Below, piece after piece: positions 4,114 through 59,100 of a DNA stretch of 64,000 nucleotides (position 1 is the stretch's first letter; each line of letters opens with the position of its first letter). Under the pieces are notes generated by a model. The model was not told the origin of the DNA and made no database searches. It saw only the letters and a list, made by a program, of their open reading frames with translations. The stretch lies in assembly GCF_030013205.1 (NCBI RefSeq), contig NZ_CP122648.1; one strand, 5' to 3'. The DNA comes from Escherichia coli. Its GTDB lineage: Bacteria; Pseudomonadota; Gammaproteobacteria; Enterobacterales; Enterobacteriaceae. A program made the position numbers and the translations under genes.

Positions 4114-4319
4114 AAAAAAAAGCACCGCAATTAGGCGGTGCTACATTAATCACTATGGACAGACAGGGTAAATGTACAGGAAGTGAAAAAAGGTAGCTTT
4201 GCTACCATGGTCTGAATCGCAGACCAATTGCAAACACAACAACACAACATCACAACCGTAAGCCAAAAGTTCACCAGAACACGCATTCCGATAAAACTTT
4301 TCGTTCCGGCTCAGGAAGT
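4114..4319 (-). ncRNA. gcvB: GcvB small regulatory RNA, divergent from gcvA
   Basis: Reverse complement reads ACTTCCTGAGCCGGAACGAAAAG...; contains the G/U-rich GTTGTGATGTTGTGTTGTTGTGTTTG region and ends in hairpin agcaccgcctaattgcggtgct plus U-run; matches recalled GcvB sequence. Confidence 0.85.
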
Positions 4320-9655: not shown

Positions 9656-11431
9656 TTAACGCTTGTACAACGGGCCGTAGTTCTGGCAAGCGCGGTAATC
9701 CTGGCCTTCAATATCCATGCCGTGCGCGGCCCAGGCAGAAGGACGATACACTTTGGTCTCTTCAACGTTGTGCATACATACCGGGATACGCAGCATGGAG
9801 GCAAGAGTGATAAAGTCTGCGCCAACGTGGCCGATGGTCAGAACCCCGTGGTTAGCGCCCCAGTTCGCCATTACCGAGTACACATCCGTAAACGGCCCTT
9901 TACCGGTGAGGCGCGGTGCAAACCAGGTGGTTGGCCAGGTTGAGTTGGTGCGTTTGTTGAGGATGTCATGCACATCCTTCGGCAATTCCACGCTCCAGCC
10001 TTCCGCGATTTGCAGTACCGGTCCGAGTCCTTTGATGATGTTGACACGGGTCATGGTGAACGGGACGCCGCCTTCGGTAAGGAAGCGGGAAGAATAACCG
10101 CCGCCACGGAAGTATTCGTGGATCGCCGGGCACCATTCGGTAGCGGCGAGGCAAGCGTCAGCCTCTTGCTGAGAGATTTCCCAGTGTGGCTTCATCGTCG
10201 GGTTACCTTCGCTGTCGCGTTGTTTACAGGAACCGTCCAGCGCAGCAGAACCGGAGTTGATCAAATGGATGATGCCGTGTTCTGCCAGTCCATCGAGTTT
10301 ATGCCCCGTTACACGTTCAATTGCTTCTGGTGACCAGTAGGTACGCACATCGGCAAATACCTGAGCGGTGCCGGTGAGCTGGTGACCCATTAGCATTGCC
10401 ACGCCGTTAAGACTGTCGTTTTCGGTCGCCACGACAAAGGGTTCGCGCACGCCATTCCAGTCAAATGAACTGTTAAGGATCGCTTCGGCGGTGTCGCCAT
10501 TGGGATATTGATCGGTCCAGTGGCGTTGTCCCTGGAAGCCCGCAGCGATGGCGTTGTAGCCAAGTGATTCTTCCACGCGACCAATATCGGCCAGTTTGCT
10601 GTTGCCTTGCATCATGTCGCGGATACACATCGCCATCAGTAAACTTTCGCGCAGAACTGCGCGGCTTTGCTCGGCATTGCGTTGATACTGTTTGTTATTT
10701 TCATCTTCGCCATAGCGGAAGTTTTTATCAGCCCAGGCCAGCGCCATTTCCAGTTCGGCTTCGTCGTAAATCTTCTGATCGATACGGCGACGCAGTTCGG
10801 TCATATCCACCGCCTGGACTTTCATTCCCAGCCAGGATTCAAAGAAGTTGTGATCAACAATGGAACCGGCGATACCCATCGAAACGCCGCCCAGCGACAG
10901 ATAGCTTTTACCTTTCATGCTGGCGACGGCCAAACCGGCGCGGGCAAAGCGCAGCAGTTTTTCTTCAACATCAGCAGGAATCGATGTGTCATCGGCATCC
11001 TGAACGTCATGACCGTAAATGGAGAATGCCGGGATGCCTTTCTGGCTGTGAGCTGCCAGAGCCGCTGCCAGGTAAACAGCGCCGGGACGTTCAGTGCCGT
11101 TAAAGCCCCAAATGGCTTTCGGGCGGGTTGGATCCATGTCGATGGTTTCACTGCCATAGCACCAGCAAGGCGTTACCGTAATGGTGAGGCCTACATTCTG
11201 ACTGCTGAATTTTTCTTCGCAAGCAGCGGCTTCAGCCATACCCGCGATACAGGTATCGGAAATGACACACTCGACGGCAGCTCCGCAGGCATGGCGCAGT
11301 TTCTCGGTCAGCAGTGCGGCCGTGGCTTTCGCCATATTCATTGTTTGTTCTTCAAGCGACTCACGAACACCCATGCGACGACCGTCAATAACCGGGCGGA
11401 TACCAATTTTCGGTAAGCTGATTTTTTTCAT
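9656..11431 (-). CDS. fucI: L-fucose isomerase
   Basis: 591-aa ORF, recognised FucI sequence. Confidence 0.95.
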
Positions 11432-15204: not shown

Positions 15205-17438
<2,234 letters not shown>

Positions 17439-21733: not shown

Positions 21734-22279
21734 GTGGACGATTTGACCGCACAAGCCCTGAAAGATTTTACTGCACGCTACTGCGATGCGTGGCATGAAG
21801 AGCATAAAAGCTGGCCGTTGAGTGAGGAACTGTACGGCGTTCCTTCACCGTGCATTATTTCAACCACCGAAGACGCCGTATACTGGCAACCCCAGCCGTT
21901 TACCGGGGAACAAAATGTAAACGCGGTTGAACGCGCTTTTGATATTGTGATACAACCCACAATTCATACCTTTTATACGACTCAGTTTGCCGGGGATATG
22001 CACGCGCAGTTTGGCGATATTAAACTGACATTGCTGCAAACCTGGAGTGAAGACGACTTCCGTCGGGTGCAGGAAAATCTGATTGGTCATCTGGTGACTC
22101 AGAAAAGGCTAAAATTGCCGCCCACGCTATTTATCGCGACGCTGGAAGAAGAGTTAGAGGTGATCTCGGTGTGTAATCTCTCCGGTGAAGTGTGTAAAGA
22201 GACGCTGGGAACACGTAAACGGGCGCATTTAGCCTCAAATCTTGCGGAATTCCTTAATCAACTTAAGCCTCTTCTGTAA
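21734..22279 (+). CDS. syd: SecY-interacting protein Syd
   Basis: 181-aa ORF, recognised Syd. Confidence 0.9.
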
Positions 22280-22298
22280 TCCAAATACCCCATCTGGT

Positions 22299-22316
22299 TG
22301 TGAGAGATCTCTTACA
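22299..22316. promoter_or_regulatory. UvrY (BarA/UvrY response regulator) binding palindrome upstream of csrB
   Basis: TGTGAGAGATCTCTTACA near-perfect 18-bp inverted repeat about 190 bp upstream of the csrB 5' end. Confidence 0.7.
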
Positions 22317-22489
22317 GACTCTGTAGGAGATCGCCAGGAAATAAGCGAATACTTAAAAAGATAAGAATCGTTATTTTCATTTAAAATCAATATATTGCTT
22401 GTTAATCCTTAACTTTCATATGAAATTTTCCTTAAGGCATTGTCTGTAAGCGCCTTGTAAGACTTCGCGAAAAAGACGATTCTATCTTC

Positions 22490-22857
22490 GTCGACAGGGA
22501 GTCAGACAACGAAGTGAACATCAGGATGATGACACTTCTGAAGGACACACCAGGATGGTGTTTCAGGGAAAGGCTTCTGGATGAAGCGAAGAGGATGACG
22601 CAGGACGCGTTAAAGGACACCTCCAGGATGGAGAATGAGAACCGGTCAGGATGATTCGGTGGGTCAGGAAGGCCAGGGACACTTCAGGATGAAGTATCAC
22701 ATCGGGGTGGTGTGAGCAGGAAGCAATAGTTCAGGATGAACGATTGGCCGCAAGGCCAGAGGAAAAGTTGTCAAGGATGAGCAGGGAGCAACAAAAGTAG
22801 CTGGAATGCTGCGAAACGAACCGGGAGCACTGTGAATACAGTGCTCCCTTTTTTTAT
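22490..22857 (+). ncRNA. csrB: CsrB, CsrA-sequestering small RNA
   Basis: About 370 nt with numerous CAGGATG / AGGA repeats; ends with hairpin gggagcactgtgaatacagtgctccc plus T-run; 5' end approximate. Confidence 0.9.
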
Positions 22858-22900
22858 TCCTGCTATTCTTCGCGGCAGTTTTTCTTATTGAGGTTGCTTT

Positions 22901-23230
22901 ATGACCACTCATGACCGCGTTCGTCTCCAGTTGCAGGCGCTTGAAGCGTTACTGCGTGAACATCAGCACTGGCGAAACGATGAACCCCAGCCGCATCAAT
23001 TTAATAGTACCCAACCGTTCTTTATGGACACCATGGAACCACTGGAGTGGTTGCAGTGGGTGCTGATCCCGCGAATGCACGATTTGTTAGAAAACAACCA
23101 GCCGTTACCGGGCGCTTTTGCCGTTGCTCCCTATTATGAAATGGCGCTGGCGACGGACCACCCGCAACGCGCGCTTATTCTGGCTGAGCTGGAAAAACTG
23201 GATGCTCTTTTTGCGGATGATGCGAGCTAA
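22901..23230 (+). CDS. yqcC: DUF446 protein YqcC
   Basis: 109-aa ORF; stop overlaps truC start (TAATG). Confidence 0.85.
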   Translation: MTTHDRVRLQLQALEALLREHQHWRNDEPQPHQFNSTQPFFMDTMEPLEWLQWVLIPRMHDLLENNQPLPGAFAVAPYYEMALATDHPQRALILAELEKLDALFADDAS

Positions 23231-24012
23231 TGCTGGAAATACTCTATCAGGATGAATGGCTGGTTGCGGTAAATAAACCCTCCGGCTGGCTGGTTCACCG
23301 CAGCTGGCTGGATCGCGACGAGAAAGTAGTGGTCATGCAAACCGTGCGTGACCAGATAGGCCAGCATGTGTTTACTGCTCATCGTCTGGACCGACCAACT
23401 TCTGGTGTGTTGTTGATGGGATTATCCAGCGAGGCCGGACGGCTGCTGGCACAACAGTTTGAACAGCACCAAATCCAGAAACGTTACCATGCGATTGTGC
23501 GCGGCTGGTTGATGGAAGAAGCAGTTCTGGATTATCCACTGGTGGAAGAACTGGACAAAATCGCTGATAAATTTGCCCGCGAAGATAAAGGCCCACAGCC
23601 AGCAGTGACGCATTATCGCGGTCTGGCGACCGTAGAAATGCCGGTAGCGACCGGACGTTACCCGACCACGCGCTACGGCCTGGTGGAACTGGAGCCGAAA
23701 ACCGGACGCAAGCACCAGCTCCGTCGCCATCTTGCCCATTTGCGCCACCCGATTATTGGCGACAGCAAACATGGTGATTTACGCCAGAATCGCAGCGGTG
23801 CTGAACATTTTGGCCTTCAGCGGTTAATGTTGCATGCCAGTCAGTTGTCATTGACGCATCCTTTTACTGGCGAGCCGCTGACTATTCACGCGGGCCTGGA
23901 CGACACCTGGATGCAGGCGTTATCACAATTTGGCTGGCGCGGTCTGCTTCCTGAAAATGAAAGGGTTGAGTTCAGTGCGCCATCGGGTCAGGATGGAGAG
24001 ATAAGTTCCTAA
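23230..24012 (+). CDS. truC: tRNA pseudouridine(65) synthase
   Basis: RluA-family pseudouridine synthase with HRLD catalytic motif. Confidence 0.9.
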
Positions 24013-24029
24013 TCCAGGGAGAAAACGGT

Positions 24030-24479
24030 ATGGCGGAAATTGGTATTTTTGTCGGCACCATGTACGGAAATTCGCTGTTAGTGGCGGAAGAAGCAGAAGC
24101 AATTCTGACCGCACAGGGCCACAAAGCAACGGTATTTGAAGATCCTGAATTAAGCGACTGGCTGCCCTATCAGGATAAGTATGTTCTGGTGGTTACGTCC
24201 ACGACCGGGCAGGGCGACCTTCCTGATAGCATTGTGCCGCTCTTTCAGGGAATCAAAGATACCCTGGGCTTCCAGCCGAATCTGCGTTATGGCGTGATTG
24301 CGCTCGGCGACAGTAGTTATGTGAATTTCTGCAATGGCGGCAAACAGTTCGATGCCTTGTTGCAGGAACAGAGCGCTCAGCGAGTGGGAGAAATGCTGTT
24401 GATTGACGCCAGTGAGAACCCGGAACCGGAAACGGAATCAAATCCGTGGGTCGAACATTGGGGCACGCTGTTGTCCTGA
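24030..24479 (+). CDS. yqcA: flavodoxin-like protein YqcA
   Basis: 149-aa ORF with flavodoxin signature (SxTGxxE-like, [10 protein letters not shown]). Confidence 0.85.
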
Positions 24480-24913: not shown

Positions 24914-26266
24914 ATGAGTTCTTTAAGTCAGGCTGCGAGCAGTGTGGAAAAACGCACAAATGCTCGTTACTGGATAGTGGTGATGTTGTTTATCGTCACA
25001 TCCTTCAACTACGGCGACCGCGCTACGCTTTCTATTGCCGGTTCGGAAATGGCCAAAGATATCGGCCTTGATCCCGTGGGAATGGGCTATGTGTTCTCTG
25101 CTTTCTCATGGGCTTATGTTATCGGACAGATCCCTGGTGGTTGGTTGCTGGATCGTTTTGGTTCAAAACGCGTCTACTTCTGGTCGATCTTTATCTGGTC
25201 GATGTTTACCTTGCTGCAAGGCTTTGTCGATATTTTTAGTGGATTCGGCATTATCGTTGCCCTGTTTACGCTGCGCTTCCTGGTCGGGCTTGCTGAAGCG
25301 CCATCTTTCCCCGGCAACAGTCGCATTGTTGCGGCCTGGTTTCCGGCGCAGGAAAGGGGAACGGCGGTGTCGATTTTTAACTCCGCTCAATACTTCGCAA
25401 CGGTGATCTTCGCGCCGATTATGGGCTGGCTGACGCATGAAGTGGGCTGGTCACACGTCTTCTTCTTTATGGGCGGTCTGGGCATTGTCATCAGCTTTAT
25501 CTGGTTGAAAGTCATCCACGAGCCAAATCAACATCCGGGTGTAAATCAGAAAGAGCTGGAGTACATCGCCGCGGGTGGCGCGCTGATCAATATGGATCAG
25601 CAAAATACCAAAGTTAAAGTGCCGTTCAGCGTGAAGTGGGGGCAGATCAAACAGCTGCTCGGGTCACGGATGATGATCGGCGTTTATATCGGTCAGTACT
25701 GTATCAACGCCCTGACTTACTTTTTCATTACCTGGTTTCCGGTTTATCTGGTGCAGGCGCGTGGGATGTCGATTCTGAAAGCGGGCTTTGTGGCTTCCGT
25801 TCCGGCGGTTTGCGGTTTTATCGGCGGTGTGCTGGGTGGGATTATTTCCGACTGGCTGATGCGCCGCACGGGATCGCTGAACATTGCGCGTAAAACACCG
25901 ATCGTAATGGGCATGTTGCTGTCGATGGTGATGGTGTTCTGCAACTACGTCAACGTTGAGTGGATGATCATCGGCTTTATGGCGCTGGCCTTCTTCGGTA
26001 AGGGCATCGGGGCGCTGGGTTGGGCAGTAATGGCAGATACCGCGCCAAAAGAGATCAGCGGTCTTTCCGGTGGCCTGTTCAACATGTTCGGTAACATTTC
26101 TGGCATCGTCACGCCAATCGCAATTGGTTATATCGTTGGCACGACTGGCTCGTTTAATGGGGCGCTGATTTATGTTGGTGTTCATGCCTTAATCGCGGTA
26201 CTGAGCTACCTGGTGCTGGTGGGCGATATCAAGCGTATCGAGCTGAAACCTGTCGCGGGGCAATAA
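24914..26266 (+). CDS. gudP: glucarate/galactarate MFS transporter
   Basis: 450-aa polytopic MFS ORF. Confidence 0.9.
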
Positions 26267-26267
26267 G

Positions 26268-27608
26268 ATGACGACACAATCCAGTCCTGTTATTACTGAT
26301 ATGAAAGTCATTCCGGTCGCCGGGCACGATAGCATGTTGCTTAATATTGGTGGGGCGCATAACGCATATTTCACTCGCAATATTGTGGTACTCACCGATA
26401 ACGCCGGGCATACCGGCATTGGTGAAGCGCCAGGCGGAGAGGTGATTTATCAGACACTGGTCGATGCTATTCCGATGGTGTTGGGCCAGGAAGTTGCGCG
26501 CCTGAATAAAGTGGTTCAGCAGGTGCATAAAGGTAATCAGGCAGCCGATTTTGATACCTTCGGCAAAGGTGCCTGGACTTTTGAATTGCGCGTTAATGCC
26601 GTGGCGGCGCTGGAAGCCGCCTTGCTTGACCTGCTAGGTAAGGCGCTGAATGTTCCGGTCTGCGAACTGTTGGGGCCAGGCAAGCAACGCGAGGCTATTA
26701 CCGTCCTCGGTTATCTGTTTTATATCGGTGATCGGACCAAAACCGATCTTCCTTATCTGGAAAATACGCCGGGCAACCATGAGTGGTATCAGTTGCGCCA
26801 TCAGAAAGCGATGAACAGCGAAGCCGTTGTGCGTCTGGCGGAAGCCTCACAGGATCGCTATGGCTTTAAAGATTTCAAACTAAAGGGCGGCGTGTTACCT
26901 GGCGAGCAAGAAATCGACACTGTTCGTGCATTGAAGAAACGCTTCCCGGATGCGCGGATTACCGTTGATCCCAACGGTGCATGGCTGCTTGATGAAGCCA
27001 TTTCTCTGTGCAAAGGGCTGAATGATGTTCTTACCTATGCTGAAGATCCATGCGGAGCAGAACAGGGGTTCTCCGGACGTGAAGTGATGGCGGAGTTTCG
27101 ACGGGCGACCGGCTTGCCCGTCGCGACTAACATGATCGCCACCAACTGGCGCGAAATGGGCCATGCGGTGATGCTCAATGCGGTAGATATTCCACTTGCC
27201 GATCCGCATTTCTGGACGCTTTCCGGTGCAGTCCGCGTAGCGCAGCTTTGCGACGACTGGGGGCTGACCTGGGGCTGCCATTCCAATAATCACTTCGATA
27301 TCTCTCTGGCGATGTTTACCCATGTGGGTGCGGCGGCACCGGGTAATCCTACCGCTATCGATACCCACTGGATTTGGCAGGAGGGAGATTGTCGCCTGAC
27401 CAAAAATCCGCTGGAGATTAAAAACGGAAAAATTGCCGTTCCTGATGCGCCCGGTCTGGGCGTGGAACTGGACTGGGAGCAGGTACAAAAGGCGCATGAG
27501 GCCTATAAACGTCTGCCTGGCGGTGCGCGTAACGACGCGGGCCCGATGCAGTACCTGATCCCCGGCTGGACCTTTGACCGTAAACGTCCCGTTTTCGGCC
27601 GTCATTGA
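26268..27608 (+). CDS. gudX: glucarate dehydratase-related protein (enolase superfamily)
   Basis: 446-aa ORF, paralogous to the downstream gudD ORF. Confidence 0.9.
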
Positions 27609-27628
27609 TTTTGAAAAAGGACATAAAT

Positions 27629-28969
27629 ATGAGTTCTCAATTTACGACGCCTGTTGTTACTGAAATGCAGGTCATCCCGGTGGCGGGCCATGACAGTATG
27701 CTGATGAATCTGAGTGGTGCACACGCACCGTTCTTCACGCGTAATATTGTGATTATCAAAGATAATTCTGGTCACACCGGCGTAGGGGAAATTCCCGGCG
27801 GCGAGAAAATCCGTAAAACGCTGGAAGATGCGATTCCGCTGGTGGTGGGTAAAACGCTGGGTGAATACAAAAACGTTCTGACGCTGGTGCGTAATACATT
27901 TGCCGATCGTGATGCCGGCGGGCGCGGTTTGCAGACATTTGACCTGCGGACCACTATTCATGTGGTTACCGGGATAGAAGCGGCAATGCTGGATCTGCTG
28001 GGGCAGCATCTGGGGGTTAACGTGGCATCCCTGCTGGGCGATGGTCAACAGCGTAGCGAAGTCGAAATGCTCGGTTATCTGTTCTTCGTCGGTAATCGCA
28101 AAGCCACACCGCTGCCGTATCAAAGCCAGCCGGATGATAAATGTGACTGGTATCGCCTGCGTCACGAAGAAGCGATGACGCCGGATGCGGTGGTGCGCCT
28201 GGCGGAAGCGGCATATGAAAAATATGGCTTCAACGATTTCAAACTGAAGGGCGGTGTACTGGCCGGGGAAGAAGAAGCAGAATCTATTGTGGCACTGGCG
28301 CAACGCTTCCCACAGGCGCGTATTACCCTCGATCCTAACGGTGCCTGGTCGCTGAACGAAGCGATTAAAATTGGTAAATACCTGAAAGGTTCGCTGGCTT
28401 ATGCAGAAGATCCGTGTGGTGCGGAGCAAGGTTTCTCCGGGCGTGAAGTGATGGCAGAGTTCCGTCGCGCGACTGGCCTGCCGACCGCAACCAATATGAT
28501 CGCCACCGACTGGCGGCAGATGGGCCATACGCTCTCCCTGCAATCCGTTGATATCCCGCTGGCGGATCCGCATTTCTGGACGATGCAAGGTTCGGTACGT
28601 GTGGCGCAAATGTGCCATGAATTTGGCCTGACCTGGGGTTCACACTCTAACAACCACTTCGATATTTCCCTGGCGATGTTTACCCATGTAGCCGCTGCTG
28701 CACCGGGTAAAATTACTGCTATTGATACGCACTGGATCTGGCAGGAAGGCAATCAGCGTCTGACCAAAGAACCGTTTGAGATCAAAGGCGGGCTGGTTCA
28801 GGTGCCGCAAAAACCAGGATTGGGCGTAGAAATCGATATGGATCAGGTGATGAAAGCCCACGAGCTGTATCAGAAACACGGGCTTGGCGCGCGTGACGAT
28901 GCGATGGGAATGCAGTACCTGATTCCTGGCTGGACGTTTGATAACAAGCGCCCGTGCATGGTGCGTTAA
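27629..28969 (+). CDS. gudD: D-glucarate dehydratase
   Basis: Start set at [10 protein letters not shown] (ATG 27629) 8 codons inside ORF-track start; enolase superfamily. Confidence 0.9.
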
Positions 28970-29208: not shown

Positions 29209-31965
29209 TTACCCGAGAATTTTGCTGGCTTCGCGCGCTACATTATCCATCTCGTCCAACAGTTCCAGCAGCTCCGGCTCCAAATCTTCTTCTTTAGTAC
29301 CGCTACGTAGCTGTTGTTCGATCAGTTGGCAGAGATTCTTCATACGCGGCACACCGCTATAGCCGCAACTGCCATGCAGTTTATGAATCAAATCAACCAG
29401 GCCTTCCGGGTTTTCTCCAACCAGCTGTTCCTCAACTTTGTTGCGAACTTCAGGCAGGAAATCGAGTAACATTTGCAGCATATCGCGCGCTAAATCGGTT
29501 TTTCCTGCTGCCTGGCGTAGTGCCAGTTGCCAGTCGAGGGTCGCATTCGGGTTCACCACAATTTCGTTGACTTCGGGCGTCACGACGCGAGAGGAAATAC
29601 CGCTGCCAGGCTTGTAGCGCAACAGCAAATTATGCAATCGTTCTTCTTCAATCGGTTTCGCCAGATAATCGCTCATCCCTGCGCCAAGCAGCTTCTCTTT
29701 TTGCCCGGCCATTGCATGCGCCGTTACCGCGATAACCGGCGTTTGTTGCTGATGGGGGAGCTGGTGGATGAGTTCGCAGGCCCGAATACCGTCCATGTCC
29801 GGCATTTGAATATCCATTAAGATCAAATCGAACGGCATCTGTTTCGCCCGTTCAACCGCCTGATGCCCGCTATCGCAAAGTTCCACATGTTGCACCATAT
29901 CTTCCAGCAATGCGCCGATAAGTTTCAGGTTAGCGGGGTTGTCATCAACCGCCATGACTGTCATTGCCAGCTTACTTTCATCGGTTACAGGCAAAAGCGT
30001 GTTTTGTTTGTGATGACAAAATTCCGTCAGGGCAGGTAACAGGCGCGTAGGTGTTAATGGTTTCAGCAGACACGCGCCGATACCATCTTGCTTAAGTTTT
30101 TCAGCATTGACTTGTGCATGGCAAGGAAGTGCCAGCATCAGAAAATCGGTCATCGATACCGCTTTCGCTAATCGCTCATGTTGCATTGTTAGCGGCTCGC
30201 GGAAGGTCACCGCAATGCCTAATAACATCATGTCGTAATGCGCGGGAGGTAGCGCGGAGAACGTTGGGCTATAAACCACTTCCAGCGGCGTTTCACTTAA
30301 AATATCCAGCGTGCATTGCGCTGCTGCGGAGTTTGGTTCGACATAGGCCAGGCGCTTGCCGGCTAGGCACTGGGTGGATGGCCCTTCGATAATAATGTTC
30401 GGGTTCAGATCGAGATTAATGTGGAACCAGAAAGTTGAACCGCGATTCGGCTGGCTATGGAACGAAATATCGCCGCCCATTTCATTAACCAGTTTTTGTG
30501 TAATCACCAGCCCCAGCCCGGTGCCACCATGACGGCGGGAAATACTGGCATCAGCCTGTCGGAAGGCCTGGAATAAGCGCGATTGATCGCGTTCAGGAAT
30601 ACCAATGCCGGTATCCCGAATCTGCACTTCAATCTGAACTTTGGTATTACTCAGCGCACGTTTTTCTACCAGAATATCAATGTTGCCATTCTCGGTGAAT
30701 TTAATTGCATTCCCTACCAGGTTAGTGATGATTTGCTGTAATCGCAGTGGGTCGCCAATTACGTTATCGGGCACGTCGCTCTTAATATTGAGCGTCAGTT
30801 CCAGCCCTTTATCGTGAGAAGAATGTGCCAGCAGGGTAACGACTTCATCCAGCGTGCTGCGTAGTGGGAATGGAATACTTTCCAGAATCAGCTTACCTGC
30901 TTCCAGTTTCGAGAAGTCGAGAACATCATTAATAATTGCCAGCAAATTATTTGCCGAACGTTCAATCGTATTCAGGTGATCGCGCTGCGTTGGTGTTAAT
31001 TCTGTTTTCAGCGTCAGGCGGGTAAAGCCAATAACACCATTCAGTGGTGTACGCAGCTCGTGTGACATATTTGCCAGAAACTCGGATTTAATACGCGCCG
31101 CTTCCTGGGCGCGCTTTTTCGCCAGATCCAACTCAACGTTCTGAATTTCCATCTGCTCCAGCGTTTCACGCAGATCGGACGTCGCCTGGGCGATATTGTG
31201 TTGCATCTCTTCGTGATAAGCCGCCAGCGACATTGCCATCGAGTTGATACCGTTTTTCAGCATATCCAGCTCGCCGAGCATAAATCCTTCCACACGGCTG
31301 TCGAGTTGCCCGCGACGGATGCGGTCGACGGTATTCACCATATTGCGAATCGGACCGGTTACATCGCGCATTAAGCGCCAGCCAAAAATAAGCGCAATAC
31401 CGATACAAAACAGCATCATCACGCTGGAAATAAAGATCTCTTTATATTGCTGCAAGCGAACCGATTTAAGATCCAGCTCAAGCGCAATATATCCCAACAT
31501 ATTTTGACTATTTTTGGCATCGCTACTGGGCGATTCGTCGGGGGAGTAACTCTCAGAAATAATCGGCGTGCGGAGGATCATAATATCGCCGTCACGAGTG
31601 ACAGTGAGCTGGCGAGGAAACGGCACGTTGCTGCCGAGCTGCATTGATGAGGGATCAAGATGAAAATTGGAGGTGACAAAGAGTCGGTTATTTTCATCAT
31701 AAACCGAAATCGCGCGAACAATATCGGAATGGCGACGATGCAGTACGCTTATTAACTGACCGATAGATTCGCGATTTTGCAGGCTCATGCCATATTCAGT
31801 AGAAACTGCAAGCGGCTCAATAATGCTGGCTCCGGCATCTTCCAGTTGACGCTGCAAGTCGTTATAGCGATGCACAACGAAAAAGATACTCAGCAATAAA
31901 CCAATAAGGACGGTCGGTGCCAGGATCAGAATCATCATGCGTGCGCGCAGGCTGTAGTTGGTCAT
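29209..31965 (-). CDS. barA: hybrid sensor histidine kinase BarA (BarA/UvrY two-component system)
   Basis: 918-aa ORF with HAMP, HisKA (SHELRTPLN), HATPase, receiver and HPt regions. Confidence 0.95.
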
Positions 31966-33370: not shown

Positions 33371-35605
33371 ATGGTTGCGGTAAGAAGTGCACATATCAAT
33401 AAGGCTGGTGAATTTGATCCGGAAAAATGGATCGCAAGTCTGGGTATTACCAGCCAGAAGTCGTGTGAGTGCTTAGCCGAAACCTGGGCGTATTGTCTGC
33501 AACAGACGCAGGGGCATCCGGATGCCAGTCTGTTATTGTGGCGTGGTGTTGAGATGGTGGAGATCCTCTCGACATTAAGTATGGACATTGACACGCTGCG
33601 GGCGGCGCTGCTGTTCCCTCTGGCGGATGCCAACGTAGTCAGCGAAGATGTGCTGCGTGAGAGCGTCGGTAAGTCGGTCGTTAACCTTATTCACGGCGTG
33701 CGTGATATGGCGGCGATCCGCCAGCTGAAAGCGACGCATACCGATTCTGTTTCCTCCGAGCAGGTCGATAACGTTCGCCGGATGTTATTGGCGATGGTCG
33801 ATGATTTTCGCTGCGTGGTCATCAAACTGGCAGAGCGTATTGCTCATCTGCGCGAAGTAAAAGACGCGCCGGAAGATGAACGCGTACTGGCGGCAAAAGA
33901 GTGCACCAATATCTACGCGCCGTTGGCGAACCGTCTTGGGATTGGACAACTGAAATGGGAGCTGGAAGATTACTGCTTCCGTTATCTCCACCCGACCGAA
34001 TACAAACGCATCGCAAAACTGCTGCATGAACGCCGTCTCGACCGCGAACACTATATCGAAGAGTTTGTCGGCCATCTGCGCGCTGAGATGAAAGCTGAAG
34101 GCGTTAAAGCTGAAGTGTATGGTCGACCGAAACACATCTACAGCATCTGGCGCAAAATGCAGAAAAAGAACCTCGCCTTCGATGAGCTGTTTGATGTGCG
34201 TGCGGTACGTATTGTCGCCGAGCGTTTACAGGATTGTTATGCCGCACTGGGGATAGTGCACACTCACTATCGCCACCTGCCGGATGAGTTTGACGATTAC
34301 GTCGCTAACCCGAAACCAAACGGTTATCAGTCTATTCATACCGTGGTTCTGGGACCAGGTGGCAAAACCGTTGAGATCCAAATCCGCACTAAACAGATGC
34401 ATGAAGATGCAGAGTTGGGTGTTGCTGCGCACTGGAAATATAAAGAGGGCGCGGCAGCTGGCGGCGCACGTTCGGGACATGAAGACCGGATTGCCTGGCT
34501 GCGTAAACTGATTGCGTGGCAGGAAGAGATGGCTGATTCCGGCGAAATGCTCGACGAAGTACGTAGCCAGGTCTTTGACGACCGGGTGTACGTCTTTACG
34601 CCGAAAGGTGATGTCGTTGATTTGCCTGCGGGATCAACACCGCTGGACTTCGCTTACCACATCCACAGTGATGTCGGACACCGCTGCATCGGGGCAAAAA
34701 TAGGCGGGCGCATTGTGCCGTTCACCTACCAGCTGCAGATGGGCGACCAGATTGAAATTATTACCCAGAAACAGCCGAACCCCAGCCGTGACTGGTTAAA
34801 CCCAAACCTCGGTTACGTCACAACCAGCCGTGGGCGTTCGAAAATTCACGCCTGGTTCCGTAAACAGGACCGTGACAAAAACATTCTGGCTGGGCGGCAA
34901 ATCCTTGACGACGAGCTGGAACATCTGGGGATCAGCCTGAAAGAAGCAGAAAAACATCTGCTGCCGCGTTACAACTTCAATGATGTCGACGAGTTGCTGG
35001 CGGCAATTGGTGGCGGGGATATCCGTCTCAATCAGATGGTGAACTTCCTGCAATCGCAATTTAATAAGCCGAGTGCCGAAGAGCAGGATGCCGCCGCACT
35101 GAAGCAACTTCAGCAAAAAAGCTATACGCCGCAAAACCGCAGTAAAGATAACGGTCGTGTGGTGGTTGAAGGTGTCGGTAACCTGATGCACCACATCGCG
35201 CGCTGCTGCCAGCCGATTCCTGGAGATGAGATTGTCGGCTTCATTACCCAGGGACGCGGTATTTCAGTACACCGCGCCGATTGCGAACAACTGGCGGAAC
35301 TGCGCTCCCATGCGCCAGAACGTATTGTTGATGCGGTATGGGGCGAGAGCTACTCCGCCGGATATTCGCTGGTGGTCCGCGTGGTGGCTAATGATCGTAG
35401 TGGGTTGTTACGTGATATCACGACCATTCTCGCCAACGAGAAGGTGAACGTACTTGGCGTTGCCAGCCGTAGCGACACCAAACAGCAGCTGGCGACCATC
35501 GACATGACCATTGAGATTTACAACCTGCAAGTGCTGGGCCGCGTGCTGGGTAAACTCAACCAGGTGCCGGATGTTATCGACGCGCGTCGGTTGCACGGGA
35601 GTTAG
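33371..35605 (+). CDS. relA: GTP pyrophosphokinase, (p)ppGpp synthetase I
   Basis: 744-aa RelA/SpoT-family ORF. Confidence 0.95.
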   Translation: MVAVRSAHINKAGEFDPEKWIASLGITSQKSCECLAETWAYCLQQTQGHPDASLLLWRGVEMVEILSTLSMDIDTLRAALLFPLADANVVSEDVLRESVGKSVVNLIHGVRDMAAIRQLKATHTDSVSSEQVDNVRRMLLAMVDDFRCVVIKLAERIAHLREVKDAPEDERVLAAKECTNIYAPLANRLGIGQLKWELEDYCFRYLHPTEYKRIAKLLHERRLDREHYIEEFVGHLRAEMKAEGVKAEVYGRPKHIYSIWRKMQKKNLAFDELFDVRAVRIVAERLQDCYAALGIVHTHYRHLPDEFDDYVANPKPNGYQSIHTVVLGPGGKTVEIQIRTKQMHEDAELGVAAHWKYKEGAAAGGARSGHEDRIAWLRKLIAWQEEMADSGEMLDEVRSQVFDDRVYVFTPKGDVVDLPAGSTPLDFAYHIHSDVGHRCIGAKIGGRIVPFTYQLQMGDQIEIITQKQPNPSRDWLNPNLGYVTTSRGRSKIHAWFRKQDRDKNILAGRQILDDELEHLGISLKEAEKHLLPRYNFNDVDELLAAIGGGDIRLNQMVNFLQSQFNKPSAEEQDAAALKQLQQKSYTPQNRSKDNGRVVVEGVGNLMHHIARCCQPIPGDEIVGFITQGRGISVHRADCEQLAELRSHAPERIVDAVWGESYSAGYSLVVRVVANDRSGLLRDITTILANEKVNVLGVASRSDTKQQLATIDMTIEIYNLQVLGRVLGKLNQVPDVIDARRLHGS

Positions 35606-35700: not shown

Positions 35701-36492
35701 ATGAATCAAATCGACCGTTTGCTCACTATTATGCAGCGCCTGCGCGATCCGGAAAACGGCTGCCCGTGGGATAAAGAGCAGACATTTGCCACCATTGCGC
35801 CTTACACCCTTGAAGAAACCTACGAGGTGCTGGACGCCATCGCCCGTGAAGATTTTGACGATCTTCGCGGTGAACTGGGCGATCTGCTGTTCCAGGTGGT
35901 GTTTTACGCACAAATGGCCCAGGAAGAAGGGCGCTTTGACTTTAATGATATTTGCGCCGCGATCAGCGATAAATTAGAACGTCGCCATCCGCATGTTTTT
36001 GCTGACAGTTCTGCCGAAAACAGTAGTGAAGTGCTTGCCCGTTGGGAGCAAATCAAAACCGAAGAGCGCGCGCAGAAAGCGCAGCATTCGGCGCTGGACG
36101 ATATTCCTCGTAGTTTACCGGCTTTAATGCGTGCGCAAAAAATCCAGAAACGTTGCGCCAACGTTGGTTTTGACTGGACGACGCTTGGTCCGGTAGTCGA
36201 TAAAGTCTACGAAGAGATCGACGAGGTGATGTACGAGGCACGGCAGGCTGTTATCGACCAGGCTAAACTGGAGGAGGAAATGGGCGACCTGCTGTTTGCC
36301 ACGGTCAATCTGGCTCGTCATTTAGGGACAAAAGCGGAAATCGCATTGCAAAAAGCGAACGAAAAATTCGAGCGTCGTTTTCGCGAAGTGGAGCGTATTG
36401 TTGCCGCGCGTGGACTGGAAATGACAGGTGTTGACCTCGAAACAATGGAAGAAGTCTGGCAACAGGTAAAACGGCAGGAAATTGATCTCTAA
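35701..36492 (+). CDS. mazG: nucleoside triphosphate pyrophosphohydrolase MazG
   Basis: 263-aa ORF with tandem MazG motifs (EExYE...). Confidence 0.9.
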   Translation: MNQIDRLLTIMQRLRDPENGCPWDKEQTFATIAPYTLEETYEVLDAIAREDFDDLRGELGDLLFQVVFYAQMAQEEGRFDFNDICAAISDKLERRHPHVFADSSAENSSEVLARWEQIKTEERAQKAQHSALDDIPRSLPALMRAQKIQKRCANVGFDWTTLGPVVDKVYEEIDEVMYEARQAVIDQAKLEEEMGDLLFATVNLARHLGTKAEIALQKANEKFERRFREVERIVAARGLEMTGVDLETMEEVWQQVKRQEIDL

Positions 36493-58682: not shown

Positions 58683-58849
58683 AATATCGTACCGCTTAAT
58701 AAACGTCTCTGTCTGAAAAGATGGGGGCGTTTTTATTTTGCGAGCAGCATTCCTGATTTTAAACGTGAACGCCGCTGGAAGAATTATCAGGTATAGAATG
58801 GCGTTGGGTGCTTGAGGCTGTCTGGCGTTAAGCATTCGCGAGGTTCCAG

Positions 58850-58954
58850 ATGGACAAAAGCCCCAGGCGATATTTCTATCAACCTGAGGCCAGCGTTCGA
58901 ACCCAAACAACTCGAATGTTAGTCTCTTCTTTGCAGGGAGGCAAGACATGCTGA
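58850..58954 (+). CDS. mok-like 34-codon upstream reading frame coupled to the hok-like ORF (hypothetical)
   Basis: ATG 58850; stop TGA 58952-58954 lies just after the hok-like ATG (58948). Confidence 0.3.
58859..58909 (-). ncRNA. candidate Sok-like antisense RNA (hypothetical)
   Basis: On - strand: TTGCCT -35 (58939-58944), 17-bp spacer, TAACAT -10 (58916-58921), then a stem-loop (gccccagg / cctgaggc) followed by TTTTG; antisense to the mok-like frame. Confidence 0.25.
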
Positions 58955-59100
58955 CAAAATATGCCCTTGTGGCAATCATAGTGCTGTGTTTTACAGTACT
59001 GGGATTCACGCTGATGGTAGGCGACTCGTTGTGTGAGTTGAGTATCAGAGAACGTGGTATGGAGTTTAAGGCAGTTCTCGCTTACGAATCGAAGAAGTAG
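58948..59100 (+). CDS. Hok/Gef-family type I toxin, 50 aa (hokX-like position between cysH and cas3)
   Basis: [50 protein letters not shown]: hydrophobic N-terminus, SLCE(L/I) and AxxAYES motifs shared with Hok/Gef; AGGGAGG RBS 6 nt upstream; GC hairpin cgcgggg/ccccgcg just downstream; below the ORF-track size cut-off. Confidence 0.75.

Follow-up and report, generated by a model that had tools for sequence, protein, structure and literature searches.

An ordinary csrB locus of Escherichia coli lying about 6.4 kb from barA, most likely through passive synteny

The 64-kb stretch of Escherichia coli chromosomal DNA analyzed here (henceforth the window) contains a well-studied and ordinary csrB locus, the biology of which is already known. 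The best explanation for the whole, to which we assign a probability of roughly 0.92, is that this csrB operates through the published UvrY/IHF mechanism and that its proximity to barA most likely reflects passive synteny. The locus shows all of the testable features that define the CsrB family, the UvrY upstream site and BarA. The physical linkage of barA and csrB, which an initial annotation of the sequence had considered worth recording, is real, spans a gap of 6,350 bp and is conserved within a clade; it is also the only part of the biology of the locus that is not already present in the literature that we searched.

The csrB gene and its RNA

The genes and gene parts relevant to the locus are the following:

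21734-22279, plus strand: syd, the conserved upstream neighbor of csrB, with its stop 20 bp before the 18-bp inverted repeat described below
22490-22858, plus strand: csrB, a 369-nt small RNA, delimited by the RF00018 match and by alignment to K-12 b4408
22823-22858, plus strand: intrinsic terminator of csrB from a terminator scan, with an 11-bp stem (22823-22848), a 4-nt loop and then the T-run TTTTTTTATT
22901-24479, plus strand: yqcC-truC-yqcA, conserved genes downstream of csrB
24914-28969, plus strand: gudP-gudX-gudD, the glucarate operon, in the variable segment between yqcA and barA
29209-31965, minus strand: barA, a 918-aa ORF for the tripartite sensor kinase that phosphorylates UvrY

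The Rfam covariance model for CsrB (RF00018), named by the initial annotation as the decisive check, matches 22499-22858 on the plus strand over its full length (model positions 1-356 of 356), at a score of 382.9 bits, the gathering score being 71, and with an E-value of 2e-111. The curated csrB of K-12 MG1655 (b4408, 369 nt) aligns to 22490-22858 with 2 substitutions; by this alignment the 5' end first proposed at 22490 is exact, and the 3' end, first placed at 22857, falls one base short of 22858. The gene is intergenic: syd stops at 22279 and yqcC starts at 22901.

CsrB family RNAs sequester CsrA dimers via GGA motifs. The RNA specified by the window contains 22 of these (12.3 +/- 2.8 in shuffled sequences), along with 14 copies of AGGA versus 3.75 and 6 copies of CAGGATG versus 0.05 in the shuffles. 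In its predicted MFE structure, which is stabler than those of the shuffled sequences (z = -3.8), 19 of the 22 GGA motifs are single-stranded, 9 of them in hairpin loops. Extrapolating from the published K-12 CsrB, from which it differs at 2 of 369 positions, the window CsrB is predicted to sequester CsrA in the same manner. The intergenic location, the density of GGA motifs and their placement in loops or free regions, the terminator and the 18-bp upstream site together match the csrB criteria of Kulkarni et al. 2006, who also found the csrB-syd context to be widely conserved.

The automatic RefSeq (PGAP) annotation of NZ_CP062203.1, a genome identical to the window across the csrB-barA region, has no csrB feature (the gene would occupy 10991-11359 of our extract L001), unlike the curated K-12 record, which does carry csrB. 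Hence, covariance-model scans are still needed to see csrB, given that automatic annotation of an identical region omits it.

Across the csrB region, the window differs from K-12 by 8 substitutions in 636 bp. Two fall in the RNA: that at 22541 preserves a GGA motif and agrees with the Rfam consensus, and that at 22829 (A in the window, G in K-12) turns a G-U pair of the terminator stem into an A-U pair. Four lie in the AT-rich spacer (22391, 22394, 22398 and 22407), none of them at IHF-consensus positions, and one is found downstream of the RNA. The interval 22270-22390, which comprises the 18-bp repeat with its flanks, is identical in the two. The differences of the window locus from K-12 are strain-level variation only.

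barA and the surrounding genes

The assignment of 29209-31965 to barA in the initial annotation holds: the interval is a full-length ORF, it is annotated as barA in a genome identical over the region, and its product matches the NCBIfam equivalog NF008318 with 1619.4 bits against a cut-off of 890 over residues 1-917. The phosphorelay residues His302, Asp718 and His861 (numbering of Zere et al. 2015, PMC4682653) are all present in the expected motifs. A single substitution, D259A (window region of 31190), separates the protein from K-12 BarA and is situated in the stretch that links the transmembrane/HAMP region to the phosphorylated His302. The genes csrB and barA are on opposite strands in convergent orientation, with six genes (yqcC, truC, yqcA, gudP, gudX and gudD) between them; the 6,350 bp between their 3' ends agree with the distance of about 6.4 kb originally given. 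The role assigned to BarA as the sensor controlling csrB is borne out by the loss of in vivo UvrY binding at csrB upon deletion of barA (Zere et al. 2015), with the qualification that this control is exerted only through UvrY, whose gene is outside the window. Along with uvrY, csrA, csrC and csrD are also absent from the genes of the 64-kb window.

Just past barA and rlmD, at 33371-35605 and 13 kb from csrB, is relA, which places three loci of the Csr circuit in one 13-kb stretch; there is no evidence for a functional role of this clustering. relA is followed after a 95-bp gap by mazG (35701-36492), and the mazEF toxin-antitoxin pair, located between these two genes in K-12, is absent in the window strain. 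Positions 1-42068 of the window differ from NZ_CP062203.1 by one base, at 10816 in fucI, a gene that the annotation of that genome lists as a pseudogene with an internal stop. The same near-identical genome has an annotated CRISPR array at 41979-42374 (region 41979-42400); the window is identical up to 42068 and then diverges, presumably due to different spacer content. Type I-E cas genes are located near the window end, and a sok-type antitoxin RNA (Rfam match at 58806-58963, plus strand, 107.5 bits) occurs beside a Hok/Gef family gene upstream of cas3. Elsewhere, a GcvB match (4114-4319, minus strand, 199 bits) lies beside gcvA.

Conservation of the linkage across genomes

Within E. coli, a 1.2-kb query around the csrB site matches 5,425 of 5,426 complete genomes, several at 100%, and the 9.7-kb csrB-barA stretch is contiguous in 5,410 of the 5,426. 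The cross-species sample comprised the barA loci of 71 species, each taken with 10 kb of flank in both directions, with no Salmonella locus among them; in these, csrB was sought by nhmmer, the 18-bp repeat by pattern and the neighboring genes by tblastn. All 34 loci with enough flank, which come from Enterobacteriaceae of many genera and from Pantoea stewartii, show the order rlmD, barA, a variable segment, yqcA, truC, yqcC, csrB, syd and queF. The gap between barA and csrB in these loci ranges from 1,669 to 9,455 bp (median 7.3 kb), depending on the presence of gudPXD or other DNA; gud is absent, among others, in E. albertii (L004), Pluralibacter gergoviae (L022), L023 and L030. In five more Erwiniaceae loci the retrieved flank runs out at yqcA, and their csrB is probably located just past its end.

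Outside this clade the picture is different. A single-sequence nhmmer search, a method that could miss divergent RNAs, recovered no csrB near barA in Yersiniaceae, Hafniaceae and Moritella, and a scan with all Rfam models at the gathering threshold of the 10 kb around barA found no RNA of the Csr/Rsm clan in Yersinia, Rahnella, Rouxiella, Edwardsiella, Moritella and Alcanivorax. The tblastn and nhmmer searches placed none of syd, yqcC, truC, yqcA and csrB inside the 10 kb flanking barA in Yersinia nurmii, Rahnella, Rouxiella, Edwardsiella, two Moritella and Alcanivorax. In these loci, rlmD still adjoins barA, and csrB/rsmB adjoins syd in Yersinia, Photorhabdus and Pectobacterium (Kulkarni et al. 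2006). Taken together, these loci and the published tables suggest that when the genes are apart barA stays with rlmD and csrB with syd.

A few individual loci show departures of their own. The csrB of L032 (12942-13520; labeled 'Klebsiella sp. BIGb0407', with a BarA only 70% identical) is in the usual place, with a degenerate upstream repeat that gives no match within 3 mismatches (the best has 4). L029 (15982-17230), from an uncultured Enterobacteriaceae MAG, has two tandem csrB copies (15982-16336 and 16673-17022), each with its own upstream inverted repeat (1 and 2 mismatches). In Pluralibacter gergoviae (L022, 14441-15497), yqcC and csrB are separated by an extra 1 kb or so, compared with about 50 bp in other genera. 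In Candidatus Pantoea persica (L057, 17109-18994), the barA neighborhood has no match to rlmD, gud or yqcA, and two matches to the OmrA-B family of sRNAs are seen downstream of barA.

Significance of the linkage

These patterns are most likely explained by vertical inheritance of an arrangement in which two conserved sets of genes, rlmD-barA and yqcA-truC-yqcC-csrB-syd-queF, adjoin at a junction that varies among Enterobacteriaceae and Erwiniaceae. As the signal travels via a diffusible protein, there would be no cis requirement for barA and csrB to be close to each other. Gene order over this scale is commonly conserved for core genes in Enterobacteriaceae and Erwiniaceae. Passive retention following a chance origin is the more economical reading of the linkage, although it is not proven, and the survival of the linkage through repeated gain and loss of the intervening DNA counts against it.

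The alternative is that the linkage is selectively maintained, for example through co-transfer or co-retention of the genes or through a single chromosomal domain coordinating their expression. In its support, the two genes stay together in every one of the 34 Enterobacteriaceae and Pantoea loci although the insert between them varies, and relA, whose product ppGpp also activates csrB, lies in the same 13 kb. The nominal chance probability of 0.25-0.5% also speaks for selection, but it was worked out after the fact: we obtain about 0.25% for a named gene within 6.35 kb of barA and about 0.5% for either of the UvrY targets, rising to about 3.7% when any pair drawn from six core Csr genes is allowed, all calculated post hoc. 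On the other hand, BarA makes no contact with DNA at any point, the intermediary gene uvrY maps outside the window together with csrA, csrC and csrD, and barA and csrB, which occupy opposite strands, are separated by six genes unrelated to them. In Yersiniaceae, Hafniaceae, Moritella and Alcanivorax the linkage is absent and rlmD is what remains beside barA, and the published tables place the Yersinia csrB beside syd; moreover, conserved order at such a scale is normal for core genes in both families. On balance, we consider selective maintenance to be highly improbable.

Passive synteny also accords with the failure of the region to resemble a functional sensor-target cluster in three respects. 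First, neither the response regulator nor other genes of the pathway are co-located, with uvrY, csrA, csrC and csrD all outside the window. Second, the linkage is kept in Enterobacteriaceae and Pantoea (34 of 34) but does not hold within 10 kb in Yersinia, Rahnella, Rouxiella, Edwardsiella, Moritella and Alcanivorax. Third, the convergent genes share no transcription unit or control region, and there is no UvrY-type site near barA. No prior remark on the proximity of barA and csrB was found in the literature searched, by a search that is crude for such a question; Kulkarni et al. 2006 discuss the csrB-syd context and do not discuss barA.

The UvrY site and the control region of csrB

The control region contains the following elements, with positions relative to the K-12 start site at 22490 where indicated:

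22299-22316, no strand assigned: 18-bp inverted repeat TGTGAGAGATCTCTTACA, the UvrY-P upstream activating site, centered at -183/-182
22322-22335, plus strand: extra UvrY-type half-site TGTAGGAGATCGCC, 5 bp downstream of the inverted repeat, a degenerate second repeat with a conserved left arm
22386-22397, plus strand: IHF-type core ATCAATATATTG (matching WATCAANNNNTTR), centered near -98 in the interval between the inverted repeat and the promoter, as read from the sequence
22414-22425, no strand assigned: perfect 12-bp palindrome TTTCATATGAAA at -76 to -65, conserved in a part of the Enterobacteriaceae
22455-22483, plus strand: weak sigma-70 promoter, with -35 TTGTAA at 22455-22460, a 17-bp spacer and -10 GATTCT at 22478-22483

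The 18-bp near-palindrome upstream of csrB was initially taken to be the response-regulator site of the BarA/UvrY system, and it is letter for letter the site defined by ChIP-exo and DNase I footprinting in the study of Zere et al. 2015, who report the identical 18-mer centered at -183/-182 in E. coli csrB. Its center in the window, 22307/22308, is at the same -183/-182 relative to the start site. The repeat fits the UvrY/SirA/GacA pattern TGTAAGN6CTTACA, and a search for TGTGAGAGATCTCTTACA tolerating as many as 3 mismatches gives, apart from its reverse strand, no second match in the 64-kb window, with 0.01 expected. With up to 1 mismatch allowed, the published UvrY consensus TGTRAGN6CTYACA likewise matches nowhere else in the window, and this search recovered no second UvrY-type site, for instance near barA, where one would suggest autoregulation. 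In the phylogenetic footprint of the control region, which covered 36 sequences from other species, the exact 18-mer is present in most of the aligned promoters.

In the published experiments, phosphorylated UvrY protected the inverted repeat alone from DNase I, unphosphorylated UvrY gave no protection, and UvrY crosslinks were detected in vivo by ChIP-exo at -222 to -142 and at -56 to +25, with the inverted repeat not preserved at the downstream crosslink sites (Zere et al. 2015). As the K-12 sequence is identical to the window across 22270-22390, the UvrY ChIP and footprint on this repeat can be regarded as already published, and UvrY-P is expected to bind 22299-22316 in the window strain on the strength of identity with the footprinted K-12 site. 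A chance, non-functional palindrome in this strain, with csrB driven by promoter-proximal elements only, has to its credit just that the experiments come from a strain other than that of the window, and is effectively refuted by the uniqueness of the repeat in the window (0.01 expected), by its identity with the footprinted K-12 site including the flanks over 22270-22390 and by its exact conservation at a fixed distance across many genera.

In the published mechanism, then, BarA phosphorylates UvrY, the gene for which is elsewhere, and UvrY-P binds the inverted repeat at 22299-22316, as shown for the identical sequence. Without IHF neither UvrY binding nor csrB expression is complete, again as shown for the identical sequence; in the proposal of Zere et al. 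2015, IHF located about halfway, at roughly -98, would bend the DNA such that UvrY-P at -183 reaches the RNA polymerase. The weak sigma-70 promoter (-35 at 22455, -10 at 22478) would be the target of the looped UvrY-P, and the resulting 369-nt CsrB RNA, with its 22 mostly single-stranded GGA motifs, would sequester CsrA dimers.

The comparative data are in line with such a loop. The inverted repeat's center lies 145-149 bp (mode 147) away from the -35 element in 33 of the 35 sequences despite a divergent spacer, and we infer that this fixed spacing of about 147 bp between activator site and promoter, held across genera, is consistent with the published DNA-looping model. Within the spacer, the TCA and TTA columns of the IHF-type core are the best-conserved part of otherwise divergent sequence. 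Zere et al. 2015 locate a putative IHF site in the interval that separates the two crosslink sites, and they found CsrB to be about 10-fold lower in the absence of IHF; the core at 22386-22397 is probably equivalent to their site. The extra half-site is seen as TGTrrGAGATCGCC at a 23-bp offset from the start of the inverted repeat in 30 of 33 species, and TGTAGGAGA is noted by the same authors.

The promoter hexamers, placed by combining the sequence with the K-12 start site and so to be taken as putative, agree with the sigma-70 consensus at 7 of 12 positions, and a consensus promoter scan reported no strong promoter at csrB. A weak promoter of this kind fits the activator-dependent type. The -35 block CTTGTAAGAC and the block GATTCTA are both conserved, and in 33 of 34 sequences they stand at a constant offset of 23 bp. 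An inverted repeat, GACGA-N8-TCGTC (22475-22492), covers the -10 and the start site and was flagged on the minus strand by the terminator scan; in the Citrobacter sequences its arms are not aligned with complementary bases, as judged from the alignment by eye.

Zere et al. 2015 also report a modest direct activation of csrB by ppGpp and DksA, and that a defined system with UvrY-P and IHF alone did not transcribe csrB. This failure implies that the published mechanism is incomplete and suggests that a factor is missing. It is possible, if rather unlikely, that conserved elements of the control region bind such a factor; the main candidate is TTTCATATGAAA, followed by the -35 block CTTGTAAGAC, which resembles a UvrY half-site. 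In the form TTTCn4GAAA, allowing up to 1 mismatch, the palindrome occurs in fixed register in 15 of the 36 promoter sequences (about 40% of the genera sampled): it is present in Escherichia, Citrobacter, Pluralibacter, Pseudocitrobacter, Siccibacter and others, and Enterobacter, Kosakonia, Shimwellia and Pantoea lack it. By mean palindromicity, its offset ranks second in the region (z about 3.2). A literature search on TTTCATATGAAA returned only unrelated matches, mostly from cloning or expression in other organisms. That it is a real regulator site is a tentative proposition to which we give low odds; the reported need for an additional factor nevertheless makes it a cheap target for mutagenesis.

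The -35 block, as TTGTAAGAC, agrees with TGTAAGAGA, the UvrY half-site, in 7 of 9 positions, and was considered as a general explanation for the promoter-proximal ChIP-exo crosslink. This was rejected, given that the -35 region of K-12 csrC does not have the block; a general role for TTGTAAGAC in UvrY-dependent promoters would also go against the observation of Zere et al. 2015 on the downstream crosslink sites. The identification of the -35 block as a UvrY half-site is a weak lead.

Comparison with known systems

The closest counterpart is csrB of K-12 MG1655 (b4408), which shares with the window locus the neighbors syd and yqcC, the inverted repeat with its flanks, the position of the latter at -183/-182 and the RNA length of 369 nt. 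The csrB of Salmonella enterica, governed by BarA-SirA, has the same 18-mer inverted repeat (centered at -182/-181), the TGTAGGAGA half-site, an IHF site and the flanking genes yqcC and syd.

The second UvrY-activated CsrA antagonist of E. coli, csrC, is similar in having an upstream site of the inverted-repeat type and a GGA-rich RNA belonging to the same Rfam clan as csrB. It differs in its distant locus (yihA/yihI), in its weaker inverted repeat TGTGAGACATTGCCGATA, in the absence of a TTGTAAGAC block at -35 and, unlike csrB, in being IHF-independent in published experiments. Zere et al. 2015 found no IHF site apparent at csrC; we observe that AATCAGTGAATTG, upstream of K-12 csrC (L075 643-655, about -88), matches the IHF core consensus WATCARNNNNTTR.

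Further afield, no Pseudomonas rsm gene and no Vibrio csrB1-3 gene is flanked by the kinase gene in Table 1 of Kulkarni et al. 2006. That barA and csrB lie close together is a feature of gene order in Enterobacteriaceae and Erwiniaceae and does not hold for BarA/GacS systems in general. The regulatory logic itself is the same in the Pseudomonas GacS/GacA system with rsmX, rsmY and rsmZ and in Vibrio with csrB1-3: a tripartite kinase, a FixJ-type regulator, a palindromic upstream site and a GGA-rich sponge RNA, the last of these belonging to Rfam families other than that of csrB within the same clan.
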